A DNA stretch of 64,000 nt from Mizuhopecten yessoensis. Its lineage: Eukaryota. Shown one piece after another: positions 21,901 to 45,165 of this stretch. Made by a program: the position numbers and the translations under genes. The stretch's first letter is position 1. The number at the start of each line of letters is the position of its first letter. The notes beneath the pieces are model-generated. The model was given only the letters and a program-made list of their open reading frames with translations. It did no database searches and was not told the origin of the DNA. Location: NCBI RefSeq assembly GCF_002113885.1, contig NW_018480066.1, forward strand, positions 651,786 through 715,785, written 5' to 3'.

Positions 21901-24900
21901 CACTAATAACTTTCACAGCTTTGCCAGGTGTGATGAAACCACTTACCACTTACCTTTGGCATTGTTTGTTTCATTTGTCGTTAGTTTCATTACTTACTAA
22001 TTAGGCCATTGCATGTACCACAGAAAAAGAATTCAATATTGAAAGAGATAAATTACTCGTCAGTTACGAACTGATTATATTTGATAGAATGTTTTTATTC
22101 TTAATTTACTAAAAGTAACGGCGATGGTGAAGTAAGTCAATGTAGGTATACTAGCTGTTGTCATGAGACCAGCGTTACAGGACATGAAGGTGGTATCCTT
22201 AAGACTACTGGAAACAGTTCTAGGTGGTATCCTTAAGACTACTGGAAACAGTTCTAGGTGGTATCCTTAGGACTACTGGAAATAGTTCTAGGTGGTATCC
22301 TTAAGACTACTGGAAACAGTTCAAGGTGGTATCCTTAAGACTACTGGAAACAGTTCTAGGTGGAATCACAAACAAGTGACTAATTCTTCTTAATACAGCT
22401 ATGCTAGGTTGATTTTAGATGTATCAGCAAATTGATTAACCAATAATTATGTTTTAAATTCTGGTAAAAAGTAAACAATTGCTGGGTAAAAAATGAATGA
22501 AAACAGAACGAAACCTACTAAATATGTAACAGGAGAAAGAGAAATATTCGGTGAGACTGGGGTTCGAATCCGGGACCCTCCAAACTTTAGACGGACATTC
22601 CTCCATTCCTCCAACCTTTAACAAAGTGTTCAACCCCGAAGACACACAAGACCCTATACCACCTTCTGTGGGTATATTTCATGGGGCGCCAAATTTGTAA
22701 CAGGAGAAAGAGAAATGCATGGCCAGACCAGGGTTCGAACTCGGGACCCTCCAAACTCTAGATGGATGCTCTACTAATTGAGCAATCTGGTTTCCGACAA
22801 TCGACCCATGGCCAGTCCAGTTCCGACACAAATGTATATAAAGTCATTTTATTTTGCCCTTTTATTTGCAGTTTATAATGACTGCCATGTCATTGCATGC
22901 TGTTTCTCATAACACATACTTCGGACTTGACTAATGAAAATGAGTAAGAACATGAGTAAAAAGGTTTTCCAGTAAATGGTTCAGTAATTGAGAATTTATT
23001 GTGTATTTAGCAGAATACTTATAATCTTGAAACTGTTTCTCAGAGTTTCCCATTTGCGTACTTTAGTTCCATAGGACCTGTTCCAGACTGGCTATCAGTG
23101 TCTGTGATTATCACTTACATGTGTACTTCCCTATCTATATATTGACTTGAACAAGTCTACAGGCTATTGACCAGATATATAGATATATTGATCAACACAT
23201 ATTAGACTTGTTCATGTCTATAGAAAGGAAATCATCATATAGACTGTTAGCCAGTCTGGTCTTATTTGCTTAAGCTTCAAATTGAGGGTTGTTTTCAATT
23301 CTATAGATACATATATAGCTAGGTTGTTGGTTATTGAGATATGTTTTACGTTTCTTATTTACTGCTAATTATACTGTTGTTTAACCTACTGTATATACAA
23401 AAAGATACAATTGTTATAAAGTAGAAAGATTACAATTGTATAACCAAGTAAAGTACAATTGGTAGACTAGGTACAGTAAGATACAATTTTTAAACCAAGA
23501 TAAAAAACAATTGTTGAACTAAGTACAATAATGTACAATTGTTTAGCGAAGTACAATAATGTACAATTGTTTAGCCAAGTACAATAGTGCAAAATTGTTT
23601 AGCCAAGTACAATAATGTACAATTGTTTAGCCAAGTACAATAATGTACAATTGTTTAGCCAAGTGTAATAACTAGCTTGTTATGTCATATGAGTAACATG
23701 TAATCTAAGTACAATAATGTACAATTGTTTAGCCAAGTGTGATAACTAGCTAGGCTATGTCATATGAGTAACATGTAACCTAAGTACAATAATATACAAT
23801 TGTTTAGCCAAGTGTGATAACTAGCTAGGCTATGTCATATGAGTAACATGTAACCTAAGCACAATAATGTACAATTGTTTAGCCAAGTGTGATAACTAGC
23901 TAGGCTATGACATATGAGTAACATGTAACCTAAGCACAATAACATATATGAAAAGAAACTCGCTTAACAGTAGAACTTTTAAGAAAAAAATCAGTTCAAA
24001 TTTTATTTTATTTCGTAATGTTGAAAATAATTGGAAATCTTTAATTGATCTGGAATATGTTATGGACATTTCTACATTACTGGTATTATTCAATATTGAA
24101 ATTATCACTTGATACCAATTTATTTGGTTTTCTGTTTTATTTAGACATGCTATTATTATATAAACATTTCCAATATTTTCCTTAGGGATGATTCATGTAT
24201 AGTTTCCTACCTGGCTAATATGTGTTCTAGTATTTCTACAAGTATGGGGAAATTCACTACCCAGACATGCATGCTTGACCGCAACAATGTATTTTTCCAT
24301 TTAGTGTAGAAAATTTAATCAAAATTACCTATTTCTCACACTTATTGAAATCAACATTTAGGGACATAATTATCTTGTTTTCCAAAAAAAGTTGTGATTG
24401 TGGAGTCTGATAATTTCTTTTTGAATTAAGAGGTATTTCTTGAACTGAATTTTTTGAAGCCTCATAATTATCAGGGATTTATTAATTATACTTTGAAAAA
24501 TATCTAAATTTTTGTAAACTTTGAAATTACATTCACCATTTGTAAAAATAAATGTGAATAAATAAAAATCTGACTGTTCGATTGTAACCTTCCAATTGTT
24601 AGTTAAGACAATTTGATTTGATATTGATATTTATTTTAAAAGTTTCTATCACAATTTAGTCTAAAGGGTGTTAAGATCAACTATAAGTTGTACAGTGGAA
24701 CCTTGTTAGTCTTGACACTTTGGTGTCGGGGAAAATAAATAGAATTTAAAAGAATTAATATTTGCATTTTATTAGTGTTTGTGTTGCTGATCCTGAGGTT
24801 CCATTAATTATTATACCAAGGACTAATCTAAATCAGTTAGGCATAAGTGAGAATGAGGAGATTTAAACAGGTTTTTGATACAGTATTTCATAGAGATTTT

Positions 24901-27900
24901 ATTATATATTATGCCTGTGTTTGTCGTGACAGTTACAGTAGATAGGCTGTGGTATAAGTGCTAGCCTATTTCAGTTACAGACTGTGCCTGAACACACTGA
25001 AGTTCGTCTGACTCGAGACAGCTACTGCGATTCCACATCTACTAGCATGGCCTCCGAGGTTTGGGCGGTCTTTAATTAGCGGTGGCATTATATATCTCTA
25101 ACTTTGTCTTTGTCTTTTTCTCCTGCATCTTGCTTCAGAGGGTGTGTTTTTTTAGCTTGACTTTCCACCTAAGTTTTAAATGTGTGTGTTTTTTTATGTT
25201 GCATGCAATAAAAATGTTGGTATGTTTAATGTATTTGCAGTCGGTAAGAACTAGCACTTGAAAATAATTGTGTGATACGAGACTGATACCTGTTATCTTC
25301 CTTAAAAATGTAACCGATACTTTTCTTTTTAAATTAATATACCTGGTAATCTATTACAGCTAGGTGCAGCTTGTTTATGGAGTGTCATGCAAAACATCCT
25401 CTTGCCCACTAGAAGGGTTACATTGGAAGGGATACTCAGATTCTGTGTAGTTCTCCATGGCACAAGGGCTAGACAACTGACAATTTTCACCACAACAATA
25501 ATGAGATGTCTCGGCGACAGTGAAAATCCTGTCATAAAACTGTCCTGACATTTCAGAAGTCTGGGCTGTTTTCAGCATATTACTGTATGGTTTTTATACA
25601 GAAATGTAGTAATGGGAAACAAATGTACTTCAATCAGCATTTTGGAATATATAAATGGATTCCTATCTGTAGGATTAACTATTTCTAAAATAGCCTAAAC
25701 ATCTTAAGCGTTAAAATATCGATATCTCCTATTCTTGAAGCAATTCAAACCCAAAGGATGAAGTAAGACTATGACATCAGTGTTTTATGTCCGGGAACAA
25801 CAGTTAGGTTTTTAACTCATTCACCCCTGAAGACACATTTGAACTCTTCCAATTCAAAGGTTGGAATAGTTCATTATGAAATTTCAGGGATGAATGAATT
25901 AATGTACCAGCACTGTATTTATACATGGTATTGAGTGTGATAAAATCCACCCCATTGTAACTCAACATGGCATTTTCCTTATCTACATGACAAATCTAAT
26001 TTGGACAGTTTACTATATTTTAACTATAATTTAAACTCATTGTCTATAAACATATATTCCTATAGGGAATGCAATAATATTAATGAACTTGTAAGATAAT
26101 GAACAAAATTTATAATTTAGATATTAATGATATGAAATGCAGTCATTTTTGAAAAGCAATATTCCATCACACTTTCCAAAGATCTCTCGAGGGCTGATCT
26201 ACTCTATCAGCATCATCAGTACTTTTGTCTCACAGCTGGAAGAGGTCAGAGGTCAGATCATGCTGTGCCAACCTCTCACCTCATTAGCTTGGTAATTTCA
26301 CTGAAGAAATTGCAGGTGTGCCGAGTTTTTGGACTACCTCCCTGAAAAGAAAAGTCGAGACAAAAGTGAAGATATACAAATAGTTTTAACAAGTTACTTC
26401 TTTATCTATTAGTAATTGAAATAGAGGTAAATTAATTCAGTAATAAACACTCAGCACAATACTCACTTGGTATATATTATCAATAAATCAGAAATACACT
26501 AACAATTTCCACTATACATGTAATTATTATCTCCTGCAACTACATGCCTATATTATGTGTAGAATTTTACTGCTTCATGCTGTTAATTCATATAACTACC
26601 TAAAACCAAAAATAATGATACACATATCAATGTCTTATTACCCTTGAAAAAGTTGTGAATTTTTCATCAATTTTTAAAATGAAACCTTTTTGTGAATTTT
26701 TCATCAATTTTTAAAATGAGACCTTTTTGAGGAATTTAAAATTTTCTTTTCTGCTTTTTTTTTAATGTGTAAAGAAAGGGAGGAGTTAGCTTAAAGCTTC
26801 AAGGTTTATGCTACATATCTTCAGTGGAACTTGGATAAAGCCCTCAGTCTCACACAGTACATCTACACTGAATATCTAGTATGTACATAAAGAAAACAGA
26901 TCAAATTGTTATAGGTGTGTTTATAAAGGTATTAAACCAGGATATAGGTCTGTAGGCCTTAATGGAGAAAACACAGAGGGAAGAAATCAGCACTTCGAAA
27001 CACAAGAAACCTCTGACTGGATGTAGTTTCTAAAGAAACAGGACTATTTTAATGAATGACCATATTTTAGGCACTGGATATCTTTCATACCTTATTTTCT
27101 GATTAGCAAAAATCTTTTTTTTAGAATGGCAATGTTTCACTTTAGAGCTTACAGGTTAGTGTGAAAGTTGGCTTCTCCTGAGATAATATAATGGTTTTGA
27201 CTGTACAGCAGATCAAAATTTGTACTTGTGAACAGGCTTCCCTAAGGGGGGGGGGTCATAGGGGGTCACTTTATGCAAAATCTTCAATCAACATTTCTTC
27301 TGTAAGTTACTGGTAGATTATGACCAACGTTTTGATGAAATCATTGATTGTTCACTATGTACCCCATTGCACTACACTTGACCCACTGAGCTTTTATTCA
27401 TATGTATTTAGATCTACATAACAGTACATGACATTTTTGGTTTCACTCAGGTGACCATTTATGCCCGTGTACCTCTTGTTTTTTCCCATACATATAATGT
27501 GATAAATGTACTAGTAAATAGGGTGATTGGTAAGGTTAACTGTTTAAAGTGATATATATATATATCTTGTAGAGTACAACTACCAACAACACTCCTACTC
27601 CCCCCATCTCACCTCAGACTGGTATCTCTGCTGGGGGCCAGGTAAGCTGTGTGTCACTTGTCCACACTTCTCTTGCTAGTCCAGACTCTGTGCTTTACTA
27701 TTTGTACAAGTTTCTGCACTTTGTTGTGAGAGTTTTTAACAAGCTAATTATAACCTCATTCCCTACCCCCATATAAGGTAAGGGACATTTTGAAGTCACT
27801 TTGTTCGTTCATCCATGCATCCTTGTCTGTGCTGCAGTTAATACCCTGTCCATACCATTTATCTTTTAACTGGCTTAACCTTTCTTTGTGAAACATCACA

Positions 27901-30900
27901 GACATATTAACAGATTGTGTGTCACATAACACACTTACAAGGTCAAGGTCAGGTCAGAAATCAGATAAGTTTAAAGCTTCCCTGGATCATATCTTCTTAA
28001 TGGCTGAACCTTTCCTTATTAAACAACATACATGTATGTGTTGACCAGTGTGTTGTATAGCACATTCAGAATCATACTCTTAAAGTCAAGTTTGTGACAA
28101 GGGTTCAAAGGTCAAATCTTTAAAAACCTGCCTTATACATTCAGGTCAGTATTAAAGAGTAAGGATATGACAAATGGTCAAAAGCACAAAAATAAATATA
28201 TTAAATTTTTTGTCCAAACCATAGCTTATAATTATCACCTTCAGGTTTTCTTATGAAACTTTCTAGCTATGCTATATCATAGTTGAACACAGTGGTATTG
28301 TGGAACACTCCAGAAAGGTCAAGGTGGCATGACAAAGGGCAAGGTGGGTAAACCCTAGTGAGCCTCATAATCAGCTCACTTAGTTGTGACTGTAAACTTC
28401 ATGCTTTTGTTTATAGCTGGATATATTGACGTTATTTCAGATACTTTATTTGACTTTTGTGTTACTTTATTTGACTTTTGTGTTACTTTATTTGACTTTA
28501 CTTTATTTGATTTTTGTGTTACTTTATTTGACTTTTGTGTTACTTTATTTGACTTTACCTTATTTGACTTTTGTGTTACTTTATTTGACTTTTGTGTTAC
28601 TTATTTGACTTTTGTGTTACTTTATTTGAGTTTTATGTTACTTTATTTGACTTTTGTGTTACTTTATTTGACTTTTGTGTTACTATATTTGACTTTTATG
28701 TTACCTGACTTTTTTGTTACTTTATTTGACTTTTATGTTACTTTATTTGACTTTTGTGTTACTTATTTGACTTTTGTGTTACTTTATTTGAGTTTTATGT
28801 TACTTTATTTGACTTTTGTGTTACTTTATTTGACTTTTGTGTTACTTTATTTGACTTTTATGTTACCTGACTTTTTTGTTACTTTATTTGACTTTTATGT
28901 TACTTTATTTGACTTTTGTGTTACTTATTTGACTTTTGTGTTACTTTATTTGAGTTTTATGTTACTTTATTTGACTTTTGTGTTACTTTATTTGACTTTT
29001 GTGTTACTTTATTTGACTTTTATATTACTTTATTTGACTTTTATAACTCAATGTTATCTCTCACTTTATTAACGCTGTCTCTTCTTGATGTCATATTCTA
29101 TAAAACTTCACAGACTGACTCGGCTACTGGTACATGCTTTTATCCAAAGAAATTTTTGTTAATACTGGATCTGAATATTTTATTTAAAATGATGGATATT
29201 TATTTCATGAACCAACTCAGCATTTTAATGTTTACAATAATCAATCAGTTTCAAAACACTTGACATGTTCTGTGAGACAACAGGGAAGGGAGTCTGTAAA
29301 CCTTGTCTGATATTCAGGCTGTGGTTGGGGAGAATGGCACAGGTCAACTTGTCGTTGATGGCAGGACACATGATTTCACATGTATCTGTTCTGGTGTTAG
29401 TCTCCTATGATGGTCACTCTATTTGGTCATACTTAAGGATCCCTGTACCACTGCCAGAAAACTTGGTAACTATACATTGGGAACTTTTTTCCAGTATGAC
29501 TGTATATTTGATAAATCATTTCTGAAAAGAAAACTATACCTTGTGGAAGTTTTATGATTTTTTTTATATAAAGATGAAATAATCAAAAGAAATCAACTTT
29601 ACTGCAATGAACCAGACCAGGATTCGAACCCAGGATCTTTGATGGTTATACTGTGGCTCTTACCAACTGAACTACCTGCATGGTTAACGGTTGTGTTCTG
29701 GCCTAGTCACGTTACAGTCGTATAAATATGAAATAAATGGGCTGTTACTGCATTTATGAAAAAGTACATCATTATTATACCACAAGGTCATTGTTGTACC
29801 ACAAGGTCATTATTATACCACAAGGTCATTATTATACCACAAGGTCATTGTTGTACCACAAGGTCATTATTATACCACAAGGTCATTGTTGTACCACAAG
29901 GTCATTATTATACCACAAGGTCATTATTATACCACAAGGTCATTGTTGTACCACAAGGTCATTATTATACCACAAGGTCATTGTTGTACCACAAGGTCAT
30001 TATTATACCACAAGGTCATTATTATACCACAAGGTCATTGTTGTACCACAAGGTCATTGTTGTACCACAAGGTCATTGTTGTACCACAAGGTCATTATTA
30101 TACCACAAGGTCATTATTATACCACAAGGTCATTGTTGTACCACAAGGTCATTGTTGTACCACAAGGTCATTATTATACCACAAGGTCATTGTTGTACCA
30201 CAAGGTCATTGTTGTACCACAAGATCATTGTTGTACCACAAGGTCATTGTTGTACCACAAGATCATTGTTGTACCACAAGGTCATTGTTATACCACAATG
30301 TCATTGTTGTACCACAAGGTCATTGTCCTAATACAAGCTGTTCATATAGTTTACTTAGTTTGTGTAATCTAAAACAAAACTTGGTCTTTATTAAAATGCT
30401 GGTACCTACATGTGTTTCTATTAAGTCAAAGTGTTTTCAGTTTTAGGGAATAATGATCAATGCTCTACTATCAGTTAAGTGCTTATACATGCATATTAAA
30501 ACAGCGACAGACTAGAGTATCATTTGGGTGATTTTCAATATAATCATGGTAAAAATATGAATATATATGTACACATATTTTATAGTTGCTAGTTATCCGG
30601 GGTGTAAGAATTCAATCTCGCTCTCAACCTCTGTTTTGCTTAATTGTTTTAGGCAAGTTTATACTTCATTTTTTGTTTAATTATCATTATCCAATTCATA
30701 CAAATAAGATTAAAATAATTGATGATCTCACCACCTGCCCTTCAGCAATGATGGGGTACCTGGCATTAAATATTTATACTTTGTGTGCTGATATCTTCTC
30801 AAAAACAATACATGGTACTTGAATTCTCATTTTGCGTTCCTGAAATAAAAAAATCCCCTGTAAAAATACGCAACTATTTGTTGAACAGTATCCAGTGTCC

Positions 30901-33900
30901 GATGTGTCACAGTCCATGGATTGTGGAAACCTTCAAGGAATCCAGCAAAGAAATATTTTATCAAACTGAAAATGTTCGTTGGTTTTGAGAAACGCTGTAG
31001 GTCCAGTAATAAAACCTGTGAATTAAACAGGATTGCAGTGTACTGATTAACACGCTAACAACGATATATGGGAGTATTTCCTGGACTTATATATTTGAAA
31101 CACTTTTTTCTCTTAATTATTTCTTACTGTTTTCAGTTTACGCTTCAAATAATAAAAATAACAAATTTGCATTACAACTTTAATACAAAAAGATGTTTGT
31201 GTGTTTTTGAAAATAAACCTTAAACATTCTGTAGACCTGCTGCAGTTATATGTATCTGTAATGATGTAATAGGAAGTAATATCTTGATGATTATCTTTAA
31301 TGTTTAATTGATTCCAGATCTAGAAGATATAAATTTAACATCAACGAAATGTTTTACTTTTATAAGGTTTAATGACTAAGTAAAATTAAGGTCAAATTAG
31401 GTTGAGCTGACTTTAACAGCCTCGTATAACTGTTCCTAATGTTAGACAATTTGAGAAATAAAAAGTTATTTCACTGAGTATGAGGAAGCAAGTATTGATA
31501 CAGATTCTATCATAACTACATAACTTACAAGTTTTTGAACACAGCTTAAACCTTATTTGTATATTGTATTTACTCAGTATGTATCTTCTTCTTTTATCTA
31601 ATAACAAGTTTTCATAATTGAAATTTGAATGTCAAATTCTAAACATTGTTTTGAACTGGCAAGATATCTGATATGACTGTAAATAACTGGTACATCCTGG
31701 TAACTTTGAGCTATTTGGAGAGTAGTGATTGACAAGAATCTTGTAAAATATCAGACATGTGCCTTTAAAGTAAATTTTCCGTTACATTCTTCAACTTCAT
31801 GATTTCTTTTACTTAAGATTATAGAAGAACATACATGTATATAGCTTTGTATGTGCATGCAATGTACATGTAGATGACATGCTTTGTAAGGAAGGACTTC
31901 ATATTTCTATTAAAATTGACATATGATAAACTAATCTAAAGAATTAGTGTGTGGTGCGTTTTTCAGAAAATGGCAGAAATGGAAGAAGTTATCCTGGCTA
32001 GAGAAAGTAAACTGGTACAGCTAAGTAAGGAAAACAACGACCTGTTAGAGACCAACAGTATCTTACGCAAGTAAGTACCACATATCTACGCCCAAGCAGT
32101 AATGCTGTTGTCTTTATTGATATAATTTTTAACTCACATCTCAATATTTTATACAGGGGATCTAACACTGAACACAACACAAAGAAGCAAAGAAATTGCA
32201 TCATTTAATAGAAATATTTTGAAGTAGTAGTGAAACCTCTGGTGTTAGTGACTGTTATCTTATCCCACCATTTTAAATTGAATCTGTGTCACTGCAATAT
32301 GCATGTACCAGCAAAACAGTTAGATATTGTGCTTTCTGTTAGTAATGGGATGACAAAAGAGCTTCTTAAAAAAGTAATTGATGTACTGAACATTTCAATT
32401 GTTTCTTTAAACTTTTACAAACCTTTATACATATCTACTTCCTATTTGCATAAAATATGTGTATTCATATGTACTCTGTAATTGGTAAATGTTACTTCTT
32501 TCCACTGTATATTTTTATCTAAATTGAAGTTGAAGTTTTAATCCAGCATATACTCCCCCTTTCTCTTAAAAAATGATCTATTTATACTGTAACTATGACA
32601 TCCTCCATTACAGCCAGATACAGCAGCTGGAAGAAACGCGAGAACTTGAATTGGAGGATGTGAGCAAGGTTTCCACAGAGTTTGCCGGTAGAATTGCAGA
32701 GTCTGAGAAAAAACTAAACAGTGTGATACGGGTACTTTTCAATTTGTAACCTTTCTGAGTAACCAAGGTGAAGGTCAATATGTTAAGTATATATTTGTTA
32801 TTAGTCCCCCACCAGTACTGCTAGAGAGTACTTTAACTTTGCACCCTGTCCATCCGTAGATGATGACAATAAAATCTAGTTGATTTGGCTAGATGTATAA
32901 GCTGTAAGTCTACATACACTTATAAGGTAGCTGACTTGCCTTGTCAATGTTATTGTCATCTTCTACGTGTTATATTTGTTAGTTAACATACTCAGTCATT
33001 TGTCTGATGAAGGTGACAGAACATAGTGTACAAGTCATCAAAATGGAAGATAAACTTTTCACCTGTCATGCTGTATGAACCTTAAAATATTCTCTTATGC
33101 TGGTAAAAGTAAAACTTAATGAGTCACTGCATTTTTTTGGGAAATTCTTGTTTAGAATTGCTTCTTAGGTTCAATGGTCAAAGGTCAAGGTACTATTTAT
33201 TGATGTCACAAAGAGTAGAATTTGATCAGGCAAATATGTCAGTATTCAGAATTAAGGCATGTTATTCCTTAAATTCAACACTGAACGGGAGATTAGTATT
33301 TCTCAGCATTACCTGTTTTTTACAATAAGATCAGTCTGTAAATTCAACATGACTATAAACAGTCCTATTTTAGTAATGCTACAAACCTAACAATGTTTGT
33401 ATCTATATGTGCGTAGTAAAAGTTTTATACTTAACAGAAATTGAGCTGGTCCCTTTTTGTATTGGCAGGAAAGAGATACAGCAAGGAAAGACCTACAGAA
33501 ATCTTTTGATGATTTTGCTAAAAAGTAAGAAACTTTTGAGTGATCATTAGTTTTATATAACACTGAAAATAAAACATAACAACATGCTCACTATTCCTCA
33601 TAAATTATTTTACAATAAGCAAAATTTTATTTTGCATATTGGATGCTTACAATTAGAGAAATAAAACTTAGCTTTCATTTCAAAGCTTAATTTGTACTCT
33701 AAAGCTATTAGTTGGAAGATTATCTAAAGATTTCATTAGAAAATTTAGAAAATTTGGAGGTTTTAGTCAGCTTTTATTTTAAATGTTGTTTTTCATTTTC
33801 AGAGTCCGAGGATTCCAGTCAGAAATAGAAGAGAAAGATCAACAGATAGCAGAACTATTACAGGAAGGTACAAACCTAATAAATTGTCTCCCTGACATCA

Positions 33901-36900
33901 TGATTACACGACACAAATATCTGTCAGACCCAGATTATAGGGTTTTGTTATGATAATTTGATTTCCAGTTTTTCATTGAGATTGTATATATCTGGAGATT
34001 TGTTTGCTGCTCCTAGGAATGTTGGTTCAAGAGCTAATTTTACGAAAATATTGTTGTCCTAGGTGGTTCAAGAGACTTTTGATATGAAAATGATCAGCTG
34101 AATGCCATTTGACATTTTTTACAGGTGAAAAGTTATCTAAACAGCAGCTACAAAGCAACAACATTGTAAAGAAGTTACGAGTGAAGGAGAAGGAAAACGA
34201 CTCACTGTTAACAAGTCAGAAGTAGGTGTCTATCATTAACATTCTGTTTACCTCCCTGTTAACCAGTCAAAAGTCAGTGTCTATTATTAACATTCTGTTT
34301 ACCTATCTGTTAACCAGTCAAAGGTCAGTGTCTGTTATTAACATTCTGTTTACCTCCCTGTTAACCAGTCAAAAGTCAGTGTCTATTATTAACATTCTGT
34401 TTACCTATCTGTTAACCAGTCAAAAGTCAGTGTCTGTTATTAACATTCTGTTTACCTCTCTGTTAACCAGTCAAAGGTCGGAATCTGTTATTAACATTCT
34501 GTTTACCTATCTGTTAACCAGTCAAAGGTCAGTGTCTGTTATTACCATTCTGTTTACCTCCCTGTTAACCAGTCAAAAGTCAGTGTCTATTCTTAACATT
34601 CTGTTTACCTCCCTGTTAACCAGTCAAAAGTCAGTGTCTATTATTAACATTCTGTTTACCTCCGTGTTTATCATGCAGCCTTCATCCTGCAAACCTTTCA
34701 GATTTCATTGCAAGATGTGGTGGGTTCTGGTGGCAAAATCTGAAAATGTCTAAAATGTACATGCAATGACCTCTATTTTTAGCCCACCATCATCTGATGG
34801 TGGGCTATTCAAATCACCCTGCACCCGTGGTCCGTCCGTGGTCTGTGGTCCGTCCTTAAACAATTCTTGTTATCGCTATTTCTCGGGAAGTACTGGAGGG
34901 ATCTTTCTCAAATTTTATATGTAGGTTCCTCTTGGTCCTTAGCTGTACAGGGCAATTTTTGAGACTGATCGGATAAACAACATGGCCGACAGGCAGCCAT
35001 CTTGGATTTTGATAGTGAAAGTTTGTTATCGCTATTTCTCGGGAAGTACTGGAGGGATCTTTCTCAAATTTTATATGTAGGTTCCCCTTGATCCCTCGTT
35101 GTGCATGTTATATTTTGAGACTGATCATAAAAACAAAATGGATTAAAAGAAGAACTAAACAGATCTTTCTCATATTGAAATGATCGATTCTATTTCTTTC
35201 ACATTAAGTACTGTACTAGTAAATATGTGAAATGACAAACTCACTTTGAAGGTTGGCTTTCATACACATCAGTATTAAGTTTAGATCAAAAGTTACCTCA
35301 AGGTGCATTTACTGTTAACATGACTCGATCAAACAGATTAGAGGAAAGAAGAGAAAAGATTGAACTGACAAAGAACTGGTACAAAGGTGGGCGCCAAGAC
35401 CCCTCTGGGATCTCTTGTATAGTATAGTAGCCTTTTTGCACCCTAACTTTTATTTTTTCATTTTTCCAGAAAACAGATCGATGATCAACAGAAAGAGTTG
35501 GACCACCTCAGGACTGTCTGCGAATCCAAGGATGTAATGGAGAAAAAACAGACAGGTCTGGCATAAAATAATAAAAATCTGACATTTCTGTTATTAACAT
35601 ACCAGTCTGTAAAAAGGTTTAACAGTGAAATGTTTTAAGGTGCTTATAAAGATAGGTATAGTTAGTCTTTCATTTTGAAAGAATGCTTCAGGTTATATTA
35701 TTAGAAAAAGAAGTTCATGGGTGTTCACCTGTTTCTTCAAACTTTGGGTCAAATTCCCCAGAAGTTAAGAAAAGAATTCAATTACCGGTATAATGTATCA
35801 ACTGCAAAACTCAACTGTATGAAAATTGTTGCATTTTGAATTCAAGGCAAATCATTTAATTTTCAGATGGCATCACTCAATTGAATTCTGCTGTACAGAA
35901 ACAAGAGAGGGAGATTTCTAAGTTAAAGGTAAAGGACTAACGCATGTGATGATACTTATTGATTTAAGTTCTTGTTATATGTTAGCGTTAGAGCTGAGAC
36001 TTATACTCGCACACTGTGAGCAGTAGAGTTACATAGGGGAAGGGAGATTATGCAGTAACATGGACAGTGTGTAATAAGTAGAAACTATCCTGCGTGTAAC
36101 TTTCAACATATACAGTACACAGTTCATGTAATATTACTGGATGCAGTGTAACTAATTGTATTTAGATATTCTCATGTAACGAAGTCAAATTTTATGTAAT
36201 TAGTAATAATTGAGAAAATAATTCTATGGTGTTTCAGGGAGAGCTGACAGATGCCCAGGAAAGAGTGCGAGGTCTGCAGGCAGCACTGGACAACTCTTAT
36301 AAGTAAGTATGGTGTCTAAACAAAACAATACATATACAAGCCAGACACCTCTACAAACCAGACCTTCAAATAATCAGGTTCCATTGTATCACTATATAAA
36401 TTAAATCTGTGCAATACTAGAAATGAGATTAAGATAGAAACATCTTTTGGTTGTGCTGATATAAAATACTTCGTTGACAACCTTTTTGTGATACTATCCT
36501 ATATGATCTTAGTTGATTGACTGTACAGATGTTATTAGGTTATTAGTCCCTTACCGGTGAAACCGGGGGGGCTATAGTTTTCCTCTCCGTCCGTCTGTGT
36601 ACGTACGTAACACCAATGATTGTCAGCGCTCTAGCGGCTTCATTCCATGAAGGATTTTGATCAAACTTCACACAAATACAATGGATCATAATATCTTGGA
36701 CAAATTCGAGTTTCAAGGTTGTTCGGTCAAGGTCACCGTTTCTATTTTTAGAGAATCCTTGTCAGCGCTCTAGCGGCTTCATTCCTTGATGGATTTTGAT
36801 CAAACTTCACACAATTACAAAGGACCATAATATCTCAGACAAGTTTGAGTTTCAGGGTTGTTTGGTCAAGGGTAACCGTTACTATTTTTAGAAAATCCTT

Positions 36901-39900
36901 GTCAGCGCTCTTGCGGCTTTATTCCTTGAGGGATTTTATCAAACTTCACTCCATTACAAAGGACCATAATATCTCGAACACATTCAAGTTTCAGGGTTGT
37001 AGAGTTGATGTAAAGGCCACCGTTAATATTAATACAAAATCCTGGACAAGTTGAAGCCAGTGATGGACTGATGATCAATATATAATAATAGAACAAAGAT
37101 CGATTTGTCCTGTTCGATTCCGATTATTGATAACAAATTCCATAATCGATATAATCGGTTCATTACGGAACTTAAAGTGTCAAATGTGCATGTAATATAC
37201 AGTATACATGGAAATTCATTTATTCTGATTTTTGTTTACAATATGATTGATGGTAATGTAGAATAGAATAATTTCATTAAAATCAGTTACAAGCTAATTG
37301 TATACTTTTCATTTTACCAAATCAACACCAAAGGGCACCATTTGTATAAATCATTACAGTGTAATAGCTAGCGGGGGCCGGGAGGGGACATGTATTGCTT
37401 TAGCAATACTCAGTATGCTTGTTATCATATGATTACAGAGAGATCGCTGAGCTTCACAAGTCCAAGGCAGCCCAGGATAGCAAAGTGCAGGAGACGGCCT
37501 TGAGTCTGGAGATGTCTGTCCGCGAGGAACTCAAAGCCACTCTGACCAAGGAACAGTTCAGCTTCAAACAGGAGAGAGAGGCCCTTATAGCTCAGGTTAG
37601 GAGATAAAGATCCTTCATTTTCAGGGAATTCCCCAGGGTGAACTTCAGAATATGTTTCAATGTGAAAATCTGAATACTTTCCCCTTATTTTATCCCAAGG
37701 TACTGTTAAAATTAACAGTTTGTGTGTACTTTCTTTCGTGTTTTCGTGATTACCAAATATTTTTTGTTTTACCCTGGATTCTATGACACTTTCCTTGGAT
37801 GTGGTAAAGTTCATTTCATTTATACATAAGTAGAATCTACAACATTTTCAACATTAAATTCTTTTGCATGAATTTCTTTGTTGTTGTTACGTGGTCATAG
37901 TTATACACGTACAATGTATATACTTTTGTTTGCACCTTTTTTTATTGAAATTAAGTACATGTAATTTTAATGTTTTTGTTGTGTATATTATTTCGAGTTG
38001 TAGAAATATTTGTTGTAGTTATATTCGTGAATCCATAGCAACGACAAAAACAACAAAAGTTTATACACAACCAACATTTTAGCTATACAGTAATGTGTTT
38101 GTTGCAAGGGATATTCAGCATTTTATAGCCCCAGTAAAACCAGACTGTCAGTATATAAGACAACGAGGAAGGAAGTCTTAAAATCTAGTCTGCTATATCT
38201 TCCAGGGTGTTGGACCCCAGTGGGGGTTCATGTGGGTCCAACATTTTGTTGGACACCTAATGTACCCATATATACATGTGTTCTTAGTTATGATTCTTCT
38301 CTGCCTAAACATTCCCCATCCACACACAAAGCCTTTAGGAGAACAATGTACAGGAGAGGGAGGATATCACCTACTCTGACATGGGTGATATACCAGTATA
38401 GCAGCATGTTAGTATAGCCACAGAGGTAAAGGAATCAGATGTTGTTTTTAACAGATTGAGGATTTGAGGATGAGTATGTCCCGGATGGAGAAGGAACACA
38501 ACCGGAGGGAGGACATGCTGAGACAGGAAATCTCGGACCTTCAGATGGTAGGTATTTACTTACTGGTGGCTCGGACCTTCAGATGGTAGGTATTTACTTA
38601 CTGGTGGCTCGGACCTTCAGATGGTAGGTATTTACTTACTGGTGGCTCGGACCTTCAGATGGTAGGTATTTACTTACTGGTGGAATCGAAAATTGGGTTC
38701 AGAGGAGAAGGTAGAATACCAAAATAATGTTAAGATAACTTAAAGGGGCTGGTCGGGGAAAAAATGTCATATTTGCTAAAATGTCACACACATGTTTAAA
38801 ATACCTTCTTATGAAATATACCGATACAAATTTTGCTGAAATTCACTCCCTCAGAGTAAAAATTATAATTATATTAAAGAAATCCTAAATCGTCACCTGA
38901 CAGTCTAAAACTCTCAATTGACTCAGATCAGTGATGTGATTTTACCGCACACGCGTCATCAACAAGGCCAAATGTAAACATCGCGGCAAAAGAAATAGAT
39001 GCCTGCAAAAGTCATGACAGGCACGAGGTATCAATACCGTTATATATAAAAGAAATTGATTGACTATAAACATACTTTGATTTATATGCTTTTAATTTGA
39101 TTTGTATGTTTGAAACTATTGTAATAATTTGTTAGATTTTGTTCTGATTAGGGGTAATAAAGTGTTTATAAATTCAGCATTTACAAGAGGATGAGGCCAG
39201 AAATCAAGACCTGACACACAGCGTAACATCAGGTATGTACCAGGTAGATGGAATGAGTCCTACATATTAGTTCTAGAATCTCTTTTACTTATCATGTGAC
39301 ATCTATTTGATGCTTATCCATGTGAAGAGTCATTTATGAATTCATATATTCCACGAATGTACCTTGTAAAAGGGAACATGAGTTTAAAGTGACATCTATT
39401 GACGTCAGTGATAGCTTACTTGCAGAATGTAATCGGTCAATAAGGTTATCATAGTCTTGTTTAGTTTAAATTAACGTAAAATCCATCATCACCTATCCCA
39501 ACAAATTAATGATATGTGAATATTTCATGTGTATCACTGGTTTCGTTGACAGCCACACGACCCCTGCTGAGACAGATTGAGAATCTCCAGAGTACATATG
39601 CTGCCCAGTCTACATCCTGGGAGAAGCTGGAGAAAACTCTCACGGACAGGATAGGTGATCCTCTACTGTTACATAACTCTTGGAGTGGAACCTAGTACTG
39701 GGTTATTCCAGAAATATAATATTCTTTAAAACTGTTAATGGTAATATGAAATATATCCACGTTATTACACAGACGAGCATTTTTGTATGCAGATGTCGAC
39801 TCATCAGAGTTAAAAGTAAACAGATTGAAACTGTACAAATATCATTCTACAACAACATTGACAAGTAACAATTGTCCACTATAGAAATGGTTAAAGTTGT

Positions 39901-42900
39901 TCTGTTTACAGTCGACACTCAGAGCCAGCTGGCCATTGCTGTTGAAAAGGAGCGGTCAGCCAATGAGAATGTGATTGACCTCACGTCCAATGTGACTGCC
40001 CTGGAATCTCAGAATTGTCGTCTGCGTCAGGAGAAGTCACAACACATTGCTCAGCTAGAGATGCTAAAGACACGCGTTGAGGTATTGGAGGATGCCAAAA
40101 ATAGGTAAGTTAAAAGACATGTGACCTATTGTAGGTTGACTGGTGTACTGAAGTGTGAAAAAAGGTAAAAATAATATTTCATAATATTAGGACCAAATGT
40201 CAAGTGGCAAGATCATTACACATGGAATATTCAGAAAAAGCGTTTTTCTCCTGCCCACACAACTCCAACAACCCAGGTGGAGAATAAATTGCCTGTGGTG
40301 GATGTTGCGGTATCTGTGCTGTGCTGTAGCATTCAAGTGAGGTAGCACTATAAATGATGCCGTTGGAAGCATAGTCCCACTACAAACAGAACACAATACA
40401 TCTCCAGCACCCACGCAGGCATACACACATATAAAGCCAGGTGGTATAGGACAAGTATTTAGCACCTGATAAGGCAGCTCCTGCAAATTCCACAAACTTG
40501 TATTGATTAATGTATTTAATAATTGTAATGATTGTATAAATTGTATATCTATGAACTATAAAGCACTTTAGAGTGGCTTGTTCTAGCTAGATAGGGCACT
40601 ATATCAAACGTTGTATATTTATTTATTTATATATTATTATTATTAAACTCCTTCAAATTTCCTCTCTTTGATTTACGACAACGAAATTTCATATTCCTTG
40701 ATCAGAATATTTTTGCCTGTACATGTGTACTAGTGATTTTGAACAGACATGATGATAAATGATGACTTTGTTGAGGGTTATCGGTGCTAGAACGGCAGAT
40801 TTTATGTTTAGTGGTTTATAATTTTGGCTATTTCTTTACAATACGTTCATATTTCAGTGAAACTGCTCAAATTGAAATAGTGAAACACCAGATGTCTCAG
40901 GAATTATCAGAAGTCAAAAAGGAGAAGATGTTTCTGGAGACACAGCTGGACATGGAGAGGACTAAGTTGGACCAGGAGAAGAAGAAGATGGCCATAGCTC
41001 AAGATCAGATAGCCCAGCTTGTAAGTACACCATGAAACAGCAGGCCAAATTGGTAGAGTGCCCATCTCGAGTTCAGAGTGTCCTGAGTTCGAATCCTGGT
41101 CTTGCCATGCACTTTTCCACTCCCATTACACAATTGGTGAGCTTGCCAACCCTTGGTTTATGTACTAGGTGAATACTTGTCAAGGGGATACCCAAACCTG
41201 AGTTGTAAATAGTTGTAACTTCAGAGAAAAACGGAGGGAGGAATGGAGATGAACTAGACATTGTCAATTTCAGTGACCAGGTAGCTGAACTGGTAGAGTG
41301 TCCGTCTAGAGTTAGGAGGGTCCCTGGTTCAAATTCCGGTCTGGCCATGCATTTTTCCAAAGGTATACTCACCTGTATTTTGATTTTAAGGTAAAATAAC
41401 CTGTATTTAGGTAAAAGATAAAGTTTCTTGTATTTTGACTAGGAGCGGGAAATCCAGAGGCCACACTCTCGTGGATCAATGTCTCCCCAGAACCTCCAGC
41501 GGATGGACAGCATGTCAAGCTTTGGTGAACCGTCCGCTCTCAACACGTCCTTTACCCAGGTCTGTTAAATGTTTGTTGTCTTTATTGATAATTGTCTAAA
41601 TAAATATATACATGCTTAGTACAGTAAAAACATGTTTATAACATATACCAAGAGACCTACAAAATGAGTCCTCTTCAGTAAAACATGTTTATAACATACC
41701 AAGAGACCTACAAAATGAGTCCTCTTCAGTAAAACATGTTTATAACATATCAAGAGACCTACAAAACGAGTCCTCTTCAGTAAAAAATGTTTATAACATA
41801 CCAAGAGACCTACAAAATGAGTCCTCTTCAGTAAAACATGTTTAAAATGAACCACAGGGGACTAATAAGTTCTCTTTAGTAAAACATGTTTATAACAAAC
41901 CCAAAGGACCTAAACAATTAGTTCTCTACAGTGAAACATGATATACTGGTAACATTAAATAGTTACCAAAGAATAAGCCCTTTATTGTAAAAATAATAAT
42001 AATGATAAACCACAGGACCTATGAAATTGATTTATTATAAGCATTATTTGTATAAAATCAATGTCCAATAATATGATTTGGTTAAAGCAAGAATCTACAA
42101 TAAGCATAGTAGAACTTAACTTGTTAACTTCTGGTCTTTGTTTAACAGAGACATTGCCGGTAGAATCACTTTGTCCGTCTACATATACCTTTCTAGAAGA
42201 TAACTCCAGTTTTGATAGGCTGATTGGTACCAATCGTCTGATGTTTGTTCATAGTCATTGAAGAGAGACCCCTGTTATTTTTGTGTGGTTGGGAGTTTAT
42301 GTCAAGGTCGCTGTTACTAAGTAGAAGAAAAATGTTAAAGAAATAACTTTCAAACACAACGTGTTGATGACCCCTATTCCTGAGGGTATGAAGTTAAGAT
42401 AAATGTCACTACAACAAGAAATGAAAAAAAATCACCCATTAAATTTCTTCTTTAGGTGAGTTGATGAGGTGGATTAGGAGTAGACCTGAGTTTGACAGTG
42501 GGTAGAACCCATTCATACATACCGATTGGTTAATGGATTCAACACACCTGCGATCTACTCTCTCCTGTCTGTTTGAATACTGAATCTTTTATGCGAGAGA
42601 CTTATAATTAAAAAAGCATCATGTGTCAGTTGACTATGTGTGTCGAGTCATAGTGTGAACTTTCGTGTCAGTTGACTATGTGTGTCGAGTCATAGTGTGA
42701 ACTTTAGTGTCAGTTGACTATGTGTGTCGAGTCATAGTGTGAACTTTAGTATCAAGGATGACCCAGAGTTTAGGTGGACTTTCTAGAATGATGTTGAGAT
42801 TGGATCGATTTTGTTTTCAGGAAAAAATTGCCTTTGAAACTAGTGTTTCTGTGATGTTTTTGAAGATTGTGTTGACTTTGTTATCTTGAATTTGTGTTAC

Positions 42901-45165
42901 TAGGATGACCTTGAAAGGAACTTCCTGTTGTCCCCTGGGAGTAGTGGACTTGGAAGTCTGACAAAGTCCAGTCTGTATGAGAACATCAGACATAGTGGTG
43001 CTGCCAATCTACTGGAGAATCTACAGTCACAGCTAAAACTCCGGGAAGGGGAGATCACTCAGTTACAGGTACGTTCCATAGATTTGTAGAGGTTTGTGAG
43101 GACCTGGAAATGACCTTGTAATCTAGACACTCTGTGTAAAATTTAACTTTCAAAGTCAAATTATTGACAAGTTTTCAATACTCTGTAAAATATTTTCAAA
43201 ATTGATAAAATTCAGTGACAAAAGCATGTTTGAAATTATGCCAGGCTTTCACTCAGGATGCTATGCAGAATGTTGCTCAATAAGAAATGCATCGACATAT
43301 AATAATACACTGCAGTACTTGTCAAAAACGTGTGTATTACTGAGAAAACATTCAGATGGATTTTGTAACGTTGTTTTCCAGAGTGAAATCCAACAACTTG
43401 AGAGGACTAGGGAATCCATGGCTCGAGAGCTTGTCAATCTGACCAATCAGAATGAAGATCTCAAGAGTCAGGTGGAGTCATTACCAGTGATTAAGAACCA
43501 AATGCAGGTGTGTACAACACCCGAACGAGGTGTTTTCTGTTATTTTTTATTTCATTGTTGAATAATGTCAAGCTTTGTCATATCAGTGGAGTTTACCTCC
43601 ATATTCATCAAGAACAGTGTTTAATTGAAATAACCTCCCATGTATTTGTTATCACCAGGATCTAAACCAGAGATACAATGCCATGCTACAGATGTACGGT
43701 GAGAAGGTGGAGGAAGCCGAGGAGCTTAAGATGGATCTCCATGATGTCAAAGAGATGTACAAAACTCAGGTAAAATCTTAGTTGTGTAATTTGATGTCAA
43801 AGAGATGTACAAAACTCAGGGAAAATCTTAATTGTGTAATTTGATTTCAAAGAGATGTACAAAACCCAGGTAAAATCTTAGTTGTTTAATTTGATGTCAA
43901 AGAGATGCACAAAACTCAGGTAAAATATTACTGTGTAATTTGATGTCAAAGAGATGTACAAAACTCAGGTAAAATCTTACTGTGTAATTTGATGTCAAGG
44001 AAATTTACAAGACTGTGGTTAAATTCTTACTAGTGTGATGTCAAGGAGATGTACAAAACTCAGATAAAAATCTTTATATGTAATTTGATGTCAGGAGGTG
44101 TACATAACTCAAATAAAACTCATTCAAAATATACTTACACAATTGACCAATTTCAAAATCATCATCTAATGAGTTACTTGAACATGTAGTGGCGGGCGGG
44201 CGGGNNNNNNNNNNNNNNNNNNNNNNNNNNNNNNNNNNNNNNNNNNNNNNNNNNNNNNNNNNNNNNNNNNNNNNNNNNNNNNNNNNNNNNNNNNNNNNNN
44301 NNNNNNNNNNNNNNNNNNNNNNNNNNNNNNNNNNNNNNNNNNNNNNNNNNNNNNNNNNNNNNNNNNNNNNNNNNNNNNNNNNNNNNNNNNNNNNNNNNNN
44401 NNNNNNNNNNNNNNNNNNNNNNNNNNNNNNNNNNNNNNNNNNNNNNNNNNNNNNNNNNNNNNNNNNNNNNNNNNNNNNNNNNNNNNNNNNNNNNNNNNNN
44501 NNNNNNNNNNNNNNNNNNNNNNNNNNNNNNNNNNNNNNNNNNNNNNNNNNNNNNNNNNNNNNNNNNNNNNNNNNNNNNNNNNNNNNNNNNNNNNNNNNNN
44601 NNNNNNNNNNNNNNNNNNNNNNNNNNNNNNNNNNNNNNNNNNNNNNNNNNNNNNNNNNNNNNNNNNNNNNNNNNNNNNNNNNNNNNNNNNNNNNNNNNTC
44701 GGACAAGTTCGATAACCGCCATTATCCGACCGTAATTATTGGAGTTATTCCCCTTGGTTTCATTAATGCGATGCATGCGTTCCATGATGTTGTATTGCAC
44801 TCATTGATCTACCAGTTATGTTGAATGATTTCTCTTTTAATATCAATTACTCACAAATACTTCATATATTTCAATCATACAAACAACTGCTCATTCAATG
44901 TGTGGCGGGCGTATTATATACCGCCCGCGGTAACCTTGTTTTTTTATCTTTTTGTCATCATGACATGTCATGTGAAATGTGATTGGTGACTTGTCAATAC
45001 CTGGGACAACATATCTATAAATAGTGGTAGTGCTGTAGTGTTAACTGTTCCATATTTTTTTTCGACTTTAACATTTGATGACGGATTGGATCTCTGGAAA
45101 AGTGCCTTGGTAAAATTTAATTAGTTTTGTTTGTTTTGCAGATTGATCATTTACTCACAAAGTGA
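15925..45165 (+). CDS. TMF1: TATA element modulatory factor 1 (golgin TMF/ARA160), complete multi-exon gene
   Basis: N-terminus MSWWNASSFSDLASQAIKNAQKKIDKVLEI; GEKLSKQQLQSNNIVKKLR; ATRPLLRQIENLQ; C-terminal LQSQLKLREGE..YNAMLQMYGEKVEEAEELKMDLHDVKEMYKTQI. Phase-consistent GT-AG exons: 15925-16045, 16392-18455, 18977-19038, 31967-32070, 32614-32731, 33469-33524, 33803-33867, 34125-34221, 35470-35555, 35867-35928, 36238-36302, 37439-37595, 38455-38547, 39178-39232, 39553-39654, 39912-40104, 40858-41020, 41443-41559, 42904-43068, 43382-43507, 43659-43769, 45142-45165. Confidence 0.95.
20393..20734. mobile_element. hAT-type MITE
   Basis: TIRs cagggctgcaacaata / tattgttgcagccgga; exact 8-bp TSD GTCTCTAG (20385-20392 and 20735-20742); subterminal ACGAT repeats. 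Confidence 0.85.
22189..22363. repeat. 34-bp minisatellite, about 5 copies
   Basis: ggtggtatccttaagactactggaaacagttcta repeated. Confidence 0.9.
22525..22830 (-). mobile_element. Near-complete TRIM with tRNA-derived LTRs (Helenus-type), family A
   Basis: Minus strand: 5' LTR TGT..ACA (22830-22696) holding a tRNA-like A/B-box unit; PBS TGGCGCCC (22691-22684); short internal region; PPT ggaggaatggaggaa (22612-22598); internally deleted 3' LTR (22597-22525); flanks AATA/AATG. Confidence 0.85.
23440..23942. repeat. Compound minisatellite: 28-bp units grading into 75-bp units
   Basis: agccaagtacaataatgtacaattgttt repeats, then a 75-bp period (23705, 23780, 23855, 23930) containing the same core. 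Confidence 0.88.
24975..25058 (+). CDS. Candidate TMF1 cassette exon (84 nt, LQTVPEHTEVRLTRDSYCDSTSTSMASE)
   Basis: tttcag acceptor, GAG|gtttgg donor, open, phase 0-0 matching the host intron. Confidence 0.45.
25816..25898. mobile_element. Tiny TTAA-flanked MITE (piggyBac-like)
   Basis: TTAA-ctcattcacccctgaa ... ttcagggatgaatgaa-TTAA. Confidence 0.65.
27573..27641 (+). CDS. Candidate TMF1 cassette exon (69 nt, STTTNNTPTPPISPQTGISAGGQ)
   Basis: cttgtag acceptor, strong CAG|gtaagc donor, open, phase 0-0, GC-richer than flanks. Confidence 0.55.
28444..29043. repeat. 21-bp minisatellite with higher-order structure
   Basis: tactttatttgacttttgtgt repeats with recurring deletion variants. Confidence 0.92.
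29565..29716 (-). mobile_element. Degenerate solo tRNA-derived LTR
   Basis: Minus strand starts TGTaacgtgact; has ggtagttcagttggta and gggttcgaatcctggtctgg as in the family A LTR. Confidence 0.5.
29768..30327. repeat. 19-bp minisatellite, about 29 copies, two interspersed variants
   Basis: accacaaggtcattattat / accacaaggtcattgttgt. Confidence 0.95.
34205..34662 (+). repeat. 51-bp tandem repeat (about 9 copies) whose first copy spans the TMF1 exon/intron junction at 34221/34222
   Basis: Exonic ctgttaacaagtcagaa|gtaggtgtctatcattaacattctgtttacctcc is followed by copies ctgttaaccagtcaaaagtcagtgtct... Confidence 0.92.
34778..35418 (+). mobile_element. HINE/pearl-like non-autonomous Helentron
   Basis: ttttagcccacc hairpin (agcccaccatca..tgatggtgggct), gtcc microsatellite, two internal repeats, 3' ggtgggc + hairpin + ctcttgt. 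Confidence 0.8.
36540..37423 (+). mobile_element. HINE/pearl-like non-autonomous Helentron ending about 15 bp upstream of a TMF1 acceptor
   Basis: ttattagtccc start, tccgtccgtc, about 140-bp internal repeats, 3' ggggac + palindrome gtattgctttagcaatac + cttgtt. Confidence 0.78.
38532..38683 (+). repeat. Four perfect 38-bp copies spanning the TMF1 donor at 38547/38548
   Basis: ctcggaccttcagatg|gtaggtatttacttactggtgg x4 (38532, 38570, 38608, 38646). Confidence 0.97.
40190..40645 (+). mobile_element. Probable SINE or LINE2-type 3' end
   Basis: taaagcactttagag...gggcactatatcaaa followed by a (TTA)n tail. Confidence 0.4.
41041..41358 (+). mobile_element. TRIM with two tRNA-derived LTRs (Helenus-type, family A relative), decayed
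   Basis: tRNA-like unit ending ttACA at 41130; TGG-starting PBS-like site at 41135; purine tract gagaaaaacggagggaggaatggaga; second tRNA-like unit at about 41275-41347. Confidence 0.78.
41620..41940. repeat. 51-bp minisatellite, about 5-6 copies
   Basis: cagtaaaacatgtttataacataccaagagacctacaaaatgagtcctctt. Confidence 0.9.
42623..42750. repeat. 42-bp tandem repeat x3
   Basis: gtgtcagttgactatgtgtgtcgagtcatagtgtgaacttt. Confidence 0.9.
43742..44115 (+). repeat. About 50-bp tandem repeat (7-8 copies) whose first copy spans the TMF1 donor at 43769/43770
   Basis: gatgtcaaagagatgtacaaaactcag|gtaaaatcttagttgtgtaattt repeated, diverging with distance. Confidence 0.93.
44185..44941 (+). mobile_element. 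Probable HINE-like element spanning assembly gap 44205-44698
   Basis: (GGGC)n before the gap; 3' ggcgggcg..ccgcccgcgg hairpin and ccttgtt end. Confidence 0.5.

Follow-up and report, generated by a model that had tools for sequence, protein, structure and literature searches.

The window, the whole stretch of 64,000 nucleotides of the scallop Mizuhopecten yessoensis that was analyzed, contains a gene for TMF1 (TATA element modulatory factor, a golgin), whose coding span of 25 exons and 4386 nt covers positions 15925..45165 in a spliced GT-AG model; this and all other features lie on the + strand unless stated otherwise. Translation of the 25-exon GT-AG model gives exactly RefSeq isoform X1 (P0014). 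The large exon matches the M. yessoensis RefSeq 'TATA element modulatory factor-like' proteins at 100%, whereas against three other scallops the identity is 62-70% and the junction peptide is unchanged; Pfam domains PF12325 and PF12329 are found on proteins identical to the TMF1 of the window. The presence of PF12329 and PF12325, the long coiled-coil protein and its orthology to named TMF1 argue together for assignment of the predicted product to the TMF1 golgins. RefSeq isoforms X1-X10 differ only within 18426-27641, in the alternative donor that closes the large exon and in cassette exons of 9-28 residues, and none differs at the repeat described below.

Coding exon 16 (38455..38547) is 93 nt long, of phase 0-0 and purine-rich, and its joints are present in all four RNA runs; its acceptor partner is coding exon 17 (39178..39232, 55 nt), and the two are separated by intron 16 (38548..39177, 630 nt), RNA joints and the gene model supporting both exon 17 and the intron. 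At this exon-intron boundary lies a minisatellite (38532..38683), found by tandem-repeat and sequence inspection and multi-copy in other animals as well. The four perfect copies reported in the earlier note are indeed there: the array holds exactly 4.0 units of 38 nt, 100% identical, starting at 38532, 38570, 38608 and 38646, and every copy agrees at 38 of 38 positions. Each unit consists of the last 16 exonic and the first 22 intronic nucleotides. The first unit (38532-38569) spans the true boundary and includes the RNA-supported donor, and three further unchanged ATG/GTAGGT sites follow within the intron, so that identical donors do stand at 38548, 38586, 38624 and 38662, with the same 16 exonic nucleotides ahead of each, just as had been claimed. 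Donor 1 (38548..38549) is authentic and the sole donor observed, on the evidence of RNA joints and of RefSeq and scallop proteins; pseudo-donors 2 (38586..38587, +38), 3 (38624..38625, +76) and 4 (38662..38663, +114) are read from the sequence, and their use was not seen in the RNA runs. A weaker site, TAG/GTATTT, missed earlier, lies 4 nt further on in every unit (38552, 38590, 38628 and 38666).

By U1-like pairing, for which the consensus motif is used, ATG/GTAGGT is the second-strongest of the 24 donors of TMF1 (-10.7 kcal/mol). Over each donor there is a wobble-palindromic core (38546..38561 in the first unit) with a predicted inter-unit pairing of 14 bp and -13.4 kcal/mol. The part of exon 16 upstream of the repeat (77 nt) is 70% purine, and such sequence precedes donor 1 alone. 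A genome search points to one locus only, 38400-38730 matching nothing but itself.

Intron 16 also harbors a truncated copy of a high-copy dispersed repeat (38740..39049, strand not assigned), separate from the minisatellite and recognized by genome matches and very high contig depth. It represents the left part of the element, with a conserved end, and stops at 39049 where other copies go on; at other loci, inverted copies of the end are found 400-1100 nt off, as in a non-autonomous DNA transposon. An ATTAAA lies inside it, at 38873. Elsewhere in the window, positions 4500-7870 carry frame-broken reverse-transcriptase-like ORFs, judged by eye to belong to a non-LTR retroelement.

Coding outcome of splicing at each donor

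Translation of each alternative product confirmed that donor 1 alone keeps the ORF, and that read-through meets a TAG after 13 codons (38587..38589). One correction to the earlier note concerns this codon, which overlaps donor 2, so that the +38 product drops it; that product is frame-shifted instead and stops at a TGA at 39212, in exon 17. The +76 and +114 products both retain the in-frame TAG at 38587, the latter being in frame by its length but with the stop inside, and products of the +4 sites are all unproductive. Every downstream-donor product thus carries a premature stop with 8 or more exons still to follow, and because of these stops neither steady-state RNA nor RefSeq can separate a donor that is not chosen from one that is chosen and whose product is then degraded.

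Donor use in mature RNA

The RNA set comprised four of the seven RNA-type runs, one per study. At exon 16, a single joint was found, 38547>39178, in four of the four runs (4 studies) at low depth; no joint corresponding to skipping of exon 16 was present in these four runs. The donors had been presented as competing, and products lengthened by 38, 76 and 114 nt were proposed as the sign of it: at the low depth available, mature RNA shows no competition, with donor 1 only in all four runs, and none of the +38, +76 or +114 products appears in any of them.

Three runs give further detail. In X19 (raw reads, 19% read), 4 reads cross 38547>39178 versus 5, 5 and 4 at neighboring introns, depth over 38622-38715 is zero, and no read fits two places; the 4 junction reads limit downstream-donor use only to less than 53%. 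Contigs lose rare variants, and X11 and X12 are therefore indicative of donor-1 predominance, not exclusivity. X11 has an intron contig beginning at 38654, a sign that this run carries the multi-copy state, and its mRNA forms a single unbroken contig of 2036 nt through donor 1 at depth 36.4. X12 retains intron contigs at depth 3-5, and donors 2-4 leave neither a branch nor a break in its 187-nt contig, which runs from 38518 through exon 17 into exon 18 at depth 28.9. At the low depth available, donor 1 is thus the predominant donor of mature RNA. The junction peptide QM/HLQE, present in 10 of 10 M. yessoensis RefSeq isoforms and in 5 of 5 proteins of the three other scallops, says little on exclusivity, since annotation omits decay-prone forms.

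The X11 intron contig behind the array (38654-38765) has a depth of 8.08, compared to 2.2-4.7 in three other introns, which may reflect slower removal of intron 16, or noise. Neither X11 nor X12 covers the 3' part of this intron; the part is polymorphic, and holes there prove nothing.

Presence and copy number in other animals

Nineteen sequencing runs were listed, with a best share of 0.80, and the DNA set was made of four of the 10 runs with a share of at least 0.70, one per study. In DNA run X1, a contig terminates at 38561 and a second one begins at 38654. In a simulation with k=31, precisely these ends arise for any pair of alleles of which at least one is multi-copy, whereas 1/1 alleles yield one unbroken contig with a joint instead; joints skipping 38, 76 or 114 nt were found in none of the four DNA runs. 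The depths of X1 (26.9 at the junction and 37.1 in the core, a difference of 10.2, with flanks at 11.4 and 8.7) lead to an estimate of about 3.6 copies (3.3-4.0 from rounding). In each of X6, X3 and X5, summed depth is above what a single copy would give, with estimates of about 3.1, 1.9 and 1.7 copies that depend on an assumed (best-fitting) contig placement. Contig depth is no true copy number, and the estimates suggest some 2-4 copies.

The multi-copy signature is direct in X1 and X11 and comes from depth in X3, X5, X6 and X12. Animals other than the assembled one, those of X1 and X11, do carry the multi-copy state, and the depth arithmetic indicates that copy number is probably variable, that is, that the array is a VNTR. 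A single copy, which in raw reads was to overturn the earlier note, is not what the contigs indicate: the ends and depths of X1 are those of a multi-copy array.

Age and origin of the array

Among 203 tandem arrays (period of at least 25, at least 3 copies) in 1.26 Mb, composed of the window and 1.2 Mb of the genome, just two are 100% identical, the median being 88%. Judged by identity between units, the 38-nt array appears young or recently homogenized relative to neighboring arrays; at a divergence of 0.8%, the probability of zero mismatches in 114 nt is 0.40. Over the adjacent 758 letters, the flanking contig of X1 and the window disagree at 6 positions, two of which lie no more than 130 nt from the array. 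Linked SNPs in exons are present at 37478, 39222, 39985 and 40030. Multi-copy alleles are thus found on two divergent haplotypes, which argues against a fresh private event.

A GGAATC-like microhomology had been noted at both boundaries. We found 0 nt of exact microhomology at either end, and the longest shared word, of 4 nt, is equalled by 55% of 20,000 random position pairs, that is, chance level; the junction between units, GGTGG/CTCGG, is also without GGAATC-like microhomology. Microhomology-mediated tandem duplication was rejected for these reasons (0 nt exact match, 4-nt word at chance level). The array may have originated by a local tandem duplication devoid of microhomology, and slippage or unequal exchange between units would then have extended it.

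Sister arrays and genome context

Two other arrays of TMF1 have the same build. The first (34201..34668) comprises 9.2 units of 51 nt at 91% identity, with a real donor, GAA/GTAGGT, at 34222 in unit 1; eight AAA/AAG-type sites followed by GTC(A/G)G lie downstream, with AAA/AAG before GTCAGT as the reading of these copies, and a TAG at 34223 blocks read-through. The second (43742..44118) comprises 7.7 units of 50 nt at 83% identity, with a real donor, CAG/GTAAAA, at 43770; the identical CAG/GTAAAA is found again at 43870, 43920 and 43969, other copies being decayed, and a TAG lies at 43779. The 38-, 51- and 50-nt arrays are an age series of one build in one gene, the two sisters being older. 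We considered the 50-nt array, in the last intron, as a decay-free control and rejected it, since from the stop at 43779 it is still some 90 nt to the following intact donor.

Of the 11 arrays in TMF1, 3 contain a real donor in their first unit, against 0.42 expected under a placement null (P 0.007); when the 38-nt array, itself the selected one, is left out, the count is 2 of 10 (P 0.052). In this calculation, one acceptor was 2 nt off and the donors were correct. A crude exon caller, trained on TMF1, recovered the 3 of 3 donor-anchored arrays of the window. In 1.2 Mb elsewhere it detected no donor-anchored array among 736 array orientations, for 0.6-2.1 expected (low power), and one acceptor-anchored array, for 0.7-2.5 expected. 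Genome-wide enrichment of donor-anchored arrays gained no support from this low-power survey (0 versus 0.6-2.1 expected), and we do not propose it.

At about 626,900-627,000 of contig G000:C76739 (L027), a duplication of 2 x 50 nt lies over the acceptor of a crudely called exon of ankyrin-repeat-like type, the 3' counterpart of a donor-spanning array. Tandem-repeat clusters make up some 24-26% of the DNA in the flanking 400 kb, and with such a proportion, boundary-spanning arrays are expected by chance in the scallop genome.

Choice among identical donors

The repeat is a real minisatellite, likely copy-variable, whose first unit straddles a TMF1 donor, and we consider it probable that mature RNA is spliced at copy 1, likely by exon definition, the other copies being silent. 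This account builds on what was observed directly: the array itself, found in further animals too, the model of the TMF1 gene, the donor-1 joints in RNA, and stops in all alternative products. Donor 1 is transcribed first and alone stands behind a complete purine-rich exon, and exon definition would fix it; its commitment would precede the copies, leaving those in the intron as silent pseudo-donors. For this upstream-first mechanism we draw on the analogy with human F7 (Borensztajn et al. 2006, PMC1557585), where splicing in 50 minigene constructs was confined to the intact site lying furthest upstream, whatever the number of units between 1 and 12; this held even for pseudo-sites scoring as high as 91 in consensus value, among them TGG/gtaggt, which did not compete. 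That TMF1 tolerates two older arrays built in this way was counted in favor of silent copies. The array is likely harmless, and would be near-neutral.

The main rival to upstream-first choice is use followed by decay: downstream donors would be used substantially, following an intron-proximal rule, and products with premature stops destroyed, a copy-number-dependent leak on TMF1 output. Between strong duplicated 5' splice sites, intron-proximal use rises beyond about 30 nt and reaches about 100% at 45 nt or more (Hodson et al. 2012, PMC3413131), a rule that would favor scallop donors 2-4. The donor is strong (second of 24 in TMF1), the spacings of 38, 76 and 114 nt span and exceed the threshold of about 30-45 nt (PMC3413131), in all alternative products 8 or more exons lie beyond the stop, and the CBS and 6-16 minisatellites do leak (cited in PMC1557585); the X11 intron contig (8.08 versus 2.2-4.7) is a weak hint of slower splicing. 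Against this, no downstream joint was seen in any of the four RNA runs, two of which retain low-depth intron contigs, the described F7 experiments, which examined 50 clones for each construct, yielded no such joint and saw no influence of copy number (PMC1557585), and multi-copy alleles are common among the animals sampled, which argues against a large cost. We regard such a leak as unlikely.

An extended form, to which we give a low probability, holds that a segregating VNTR of 2-4 copies, in which a strong donor recurs at just the spacing (30-45 nt) where intron-proximal choice sets in, tunes TMF1 output, through the loss of some transcripts to stop-containing products that are rapidly degraded or through a donor-masking helix, and that with the two older arrays it forms a decisive natural series.

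RNA structure could also contribute to donor choice, as folding models suggest. The wobble-palindromic cores would pair between units, donor 1 would be briefly open before unit 2 is made, and later donors would emerge beside a pairing partner. The predicted 14-bp inter-unit helix over the donors is indeed stronger than U1-like pairing (-13.4 versus -10.7 kcal/mol), in the model donor 1 costs 2.8-5.0 kcal/mol to open as long as the transcript is short of 38591 while donor 2 emerges at 7.8, and in the full transcript donor 1 is predicted to be the cheapest to open (6.4 versus 7.1, 9.1 and 8.4). These differences are within model error, however, and donor 4 emerges at just 3.7; two single-copy TMF1 donors have stronger self-pairing cores, and the same behavior is seen in F7 and the two sister arrays, which lack such a helix. 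Moreover, of 500 control arrays made by repeating a shuffled unit, 95 were as stable as the real one, which thus shows no excess stability. We rejected a special stability of the array RNA on this control of repeated shuffled units (95/500); a plain shuffle gave a z of -3.5 but destroys the repetition, and is hence an improper control. As the determinant of donor choice, structure is very improbable.

A very recent private expansion through microhomology-guided slippage, as advanced in the earlier note, has very little left in its favor. The rarity of perfect identity, found in just 2 of 203 comparable arrays, upholds the idea of recency, but there is no exact microhomology and the 4-nt match is at chance level, the array is multi-copy in independent animals (X1 and X11 directly, X3, X5, X6 and X12 by depth), and in X1 it sits on a different, divergent flanking haplotype. 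A private event is largely refuted by these observations, whereas the increase to four copies from a lower number may be recent. Finally, it is hardly conceivable that the species has a single copy which the assembly wrote four times, and this artefact was rejected, for although the assembly is fragmented with gaps and the exact count of four in the assembled animal rests on it, the X1 contig breaks match simulated multi-copy alleles and this loop signature goes with self-consistent X1 depths of about 3.6 copies.

If splicing at copy 1 with silent downstream copies is the correct reading, the upstream-first rule for reiterated donors extends from mammals to a mollusc, and the tolerance of splice-site-copying arrays in a genome rich in tandem repeats is explained; this would be a confirmation rather than a new principle. 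The import would be larger if copy number altered TMF1 output. Breeders' populations would then be a ready dosage series, placed at a spacing where the published models disagree (upstream use in F7, intron-proximal use in Hodson et al.). Were the array to tune TMF1 output, the allelic and age series would be the first outside vertebrates in the literature searched, and would decide between upstream-first and intron-proximal choice.

Comparison with known donor-spanning repeats

The idea that such an array is a natural test of how a donor is chosen among identical sites is a fair one, but the test has already been run in mammals, on human F7 in 2006 (PMC1557585). A donor-spanning minisatellite in a bivalve (or mollusc) was not found in the literature searched, mostly without subscription papers, and the accessible parts of PMC10078293 and PMC8724738 held nothing on donor-containing repeat units.

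The other human minisatellites cited in PMC1557585 also span donors. Those of LMNB2 and PDGF introns use the authentic donor only, the one donor also seen in use in scallop, whereas in CBS intron 13 and 6-16 intron 2 the two nearest pseudo-sites are also used, a use of which none was seen in scallop at low depth. Their arrays are longer, with 10-25 units as cited there, compared to 4 in scallop. The duplicated sites of Hodson et al. (PMC3413131) resemble the scallop ones in that the competing donors are identical, and the scallop spacing of 38 nt falls inside their 30-45 nt transition; they differ in that the intron-proximal site wins at 45 nt or more, while in scallop mature RNA it is the most distal one that is seen in use. 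With respect to TMF1 golgins, the scallop protein shows no difference, the array leaving the protein unchanged.

The closest system is the minisatellite of human F7 intron 7 (IVS7), a 37-bp unit across the boundary in 5-9 copies, whose identical pseudo-donors are functional yet silent (Borensztajn et al. 2006, PMC1557585). It differs from the scallop array in several ways: F7 is a mammalian gene and the scallop a mollusc; each unit carries 4 exonic nucleotides in F7 and 16 in scallop; there are 5-9 copies versus 4, the scallop units being identical throughout; a donor-donor helix is predicted in scallop and none was found in F7; and two F7 pseudo-sites, as reported, are stop-free while none is so in scallop, so that decay could hide use in the latter. 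The likenesses are that the first unit spans the exon-intron boundary in both (PMC1557585), that identical donors are repeated in the intron at spacings of 37 nt in F7 and 38 nt in scallop, that the donors are similar (TGG/gtgggt in F7, and the mutant TGG/gtaggt differs from the scallop ATG/GTAGGT only at -3 and -2), and that only the most upstream donor is seen to be used in both. A boundary-spanning unit, a reiterated donor and, at low RNA depth, upstream predominance, the three testable features of the F7 IVS7 type in the published description, are all present in the scallop array.
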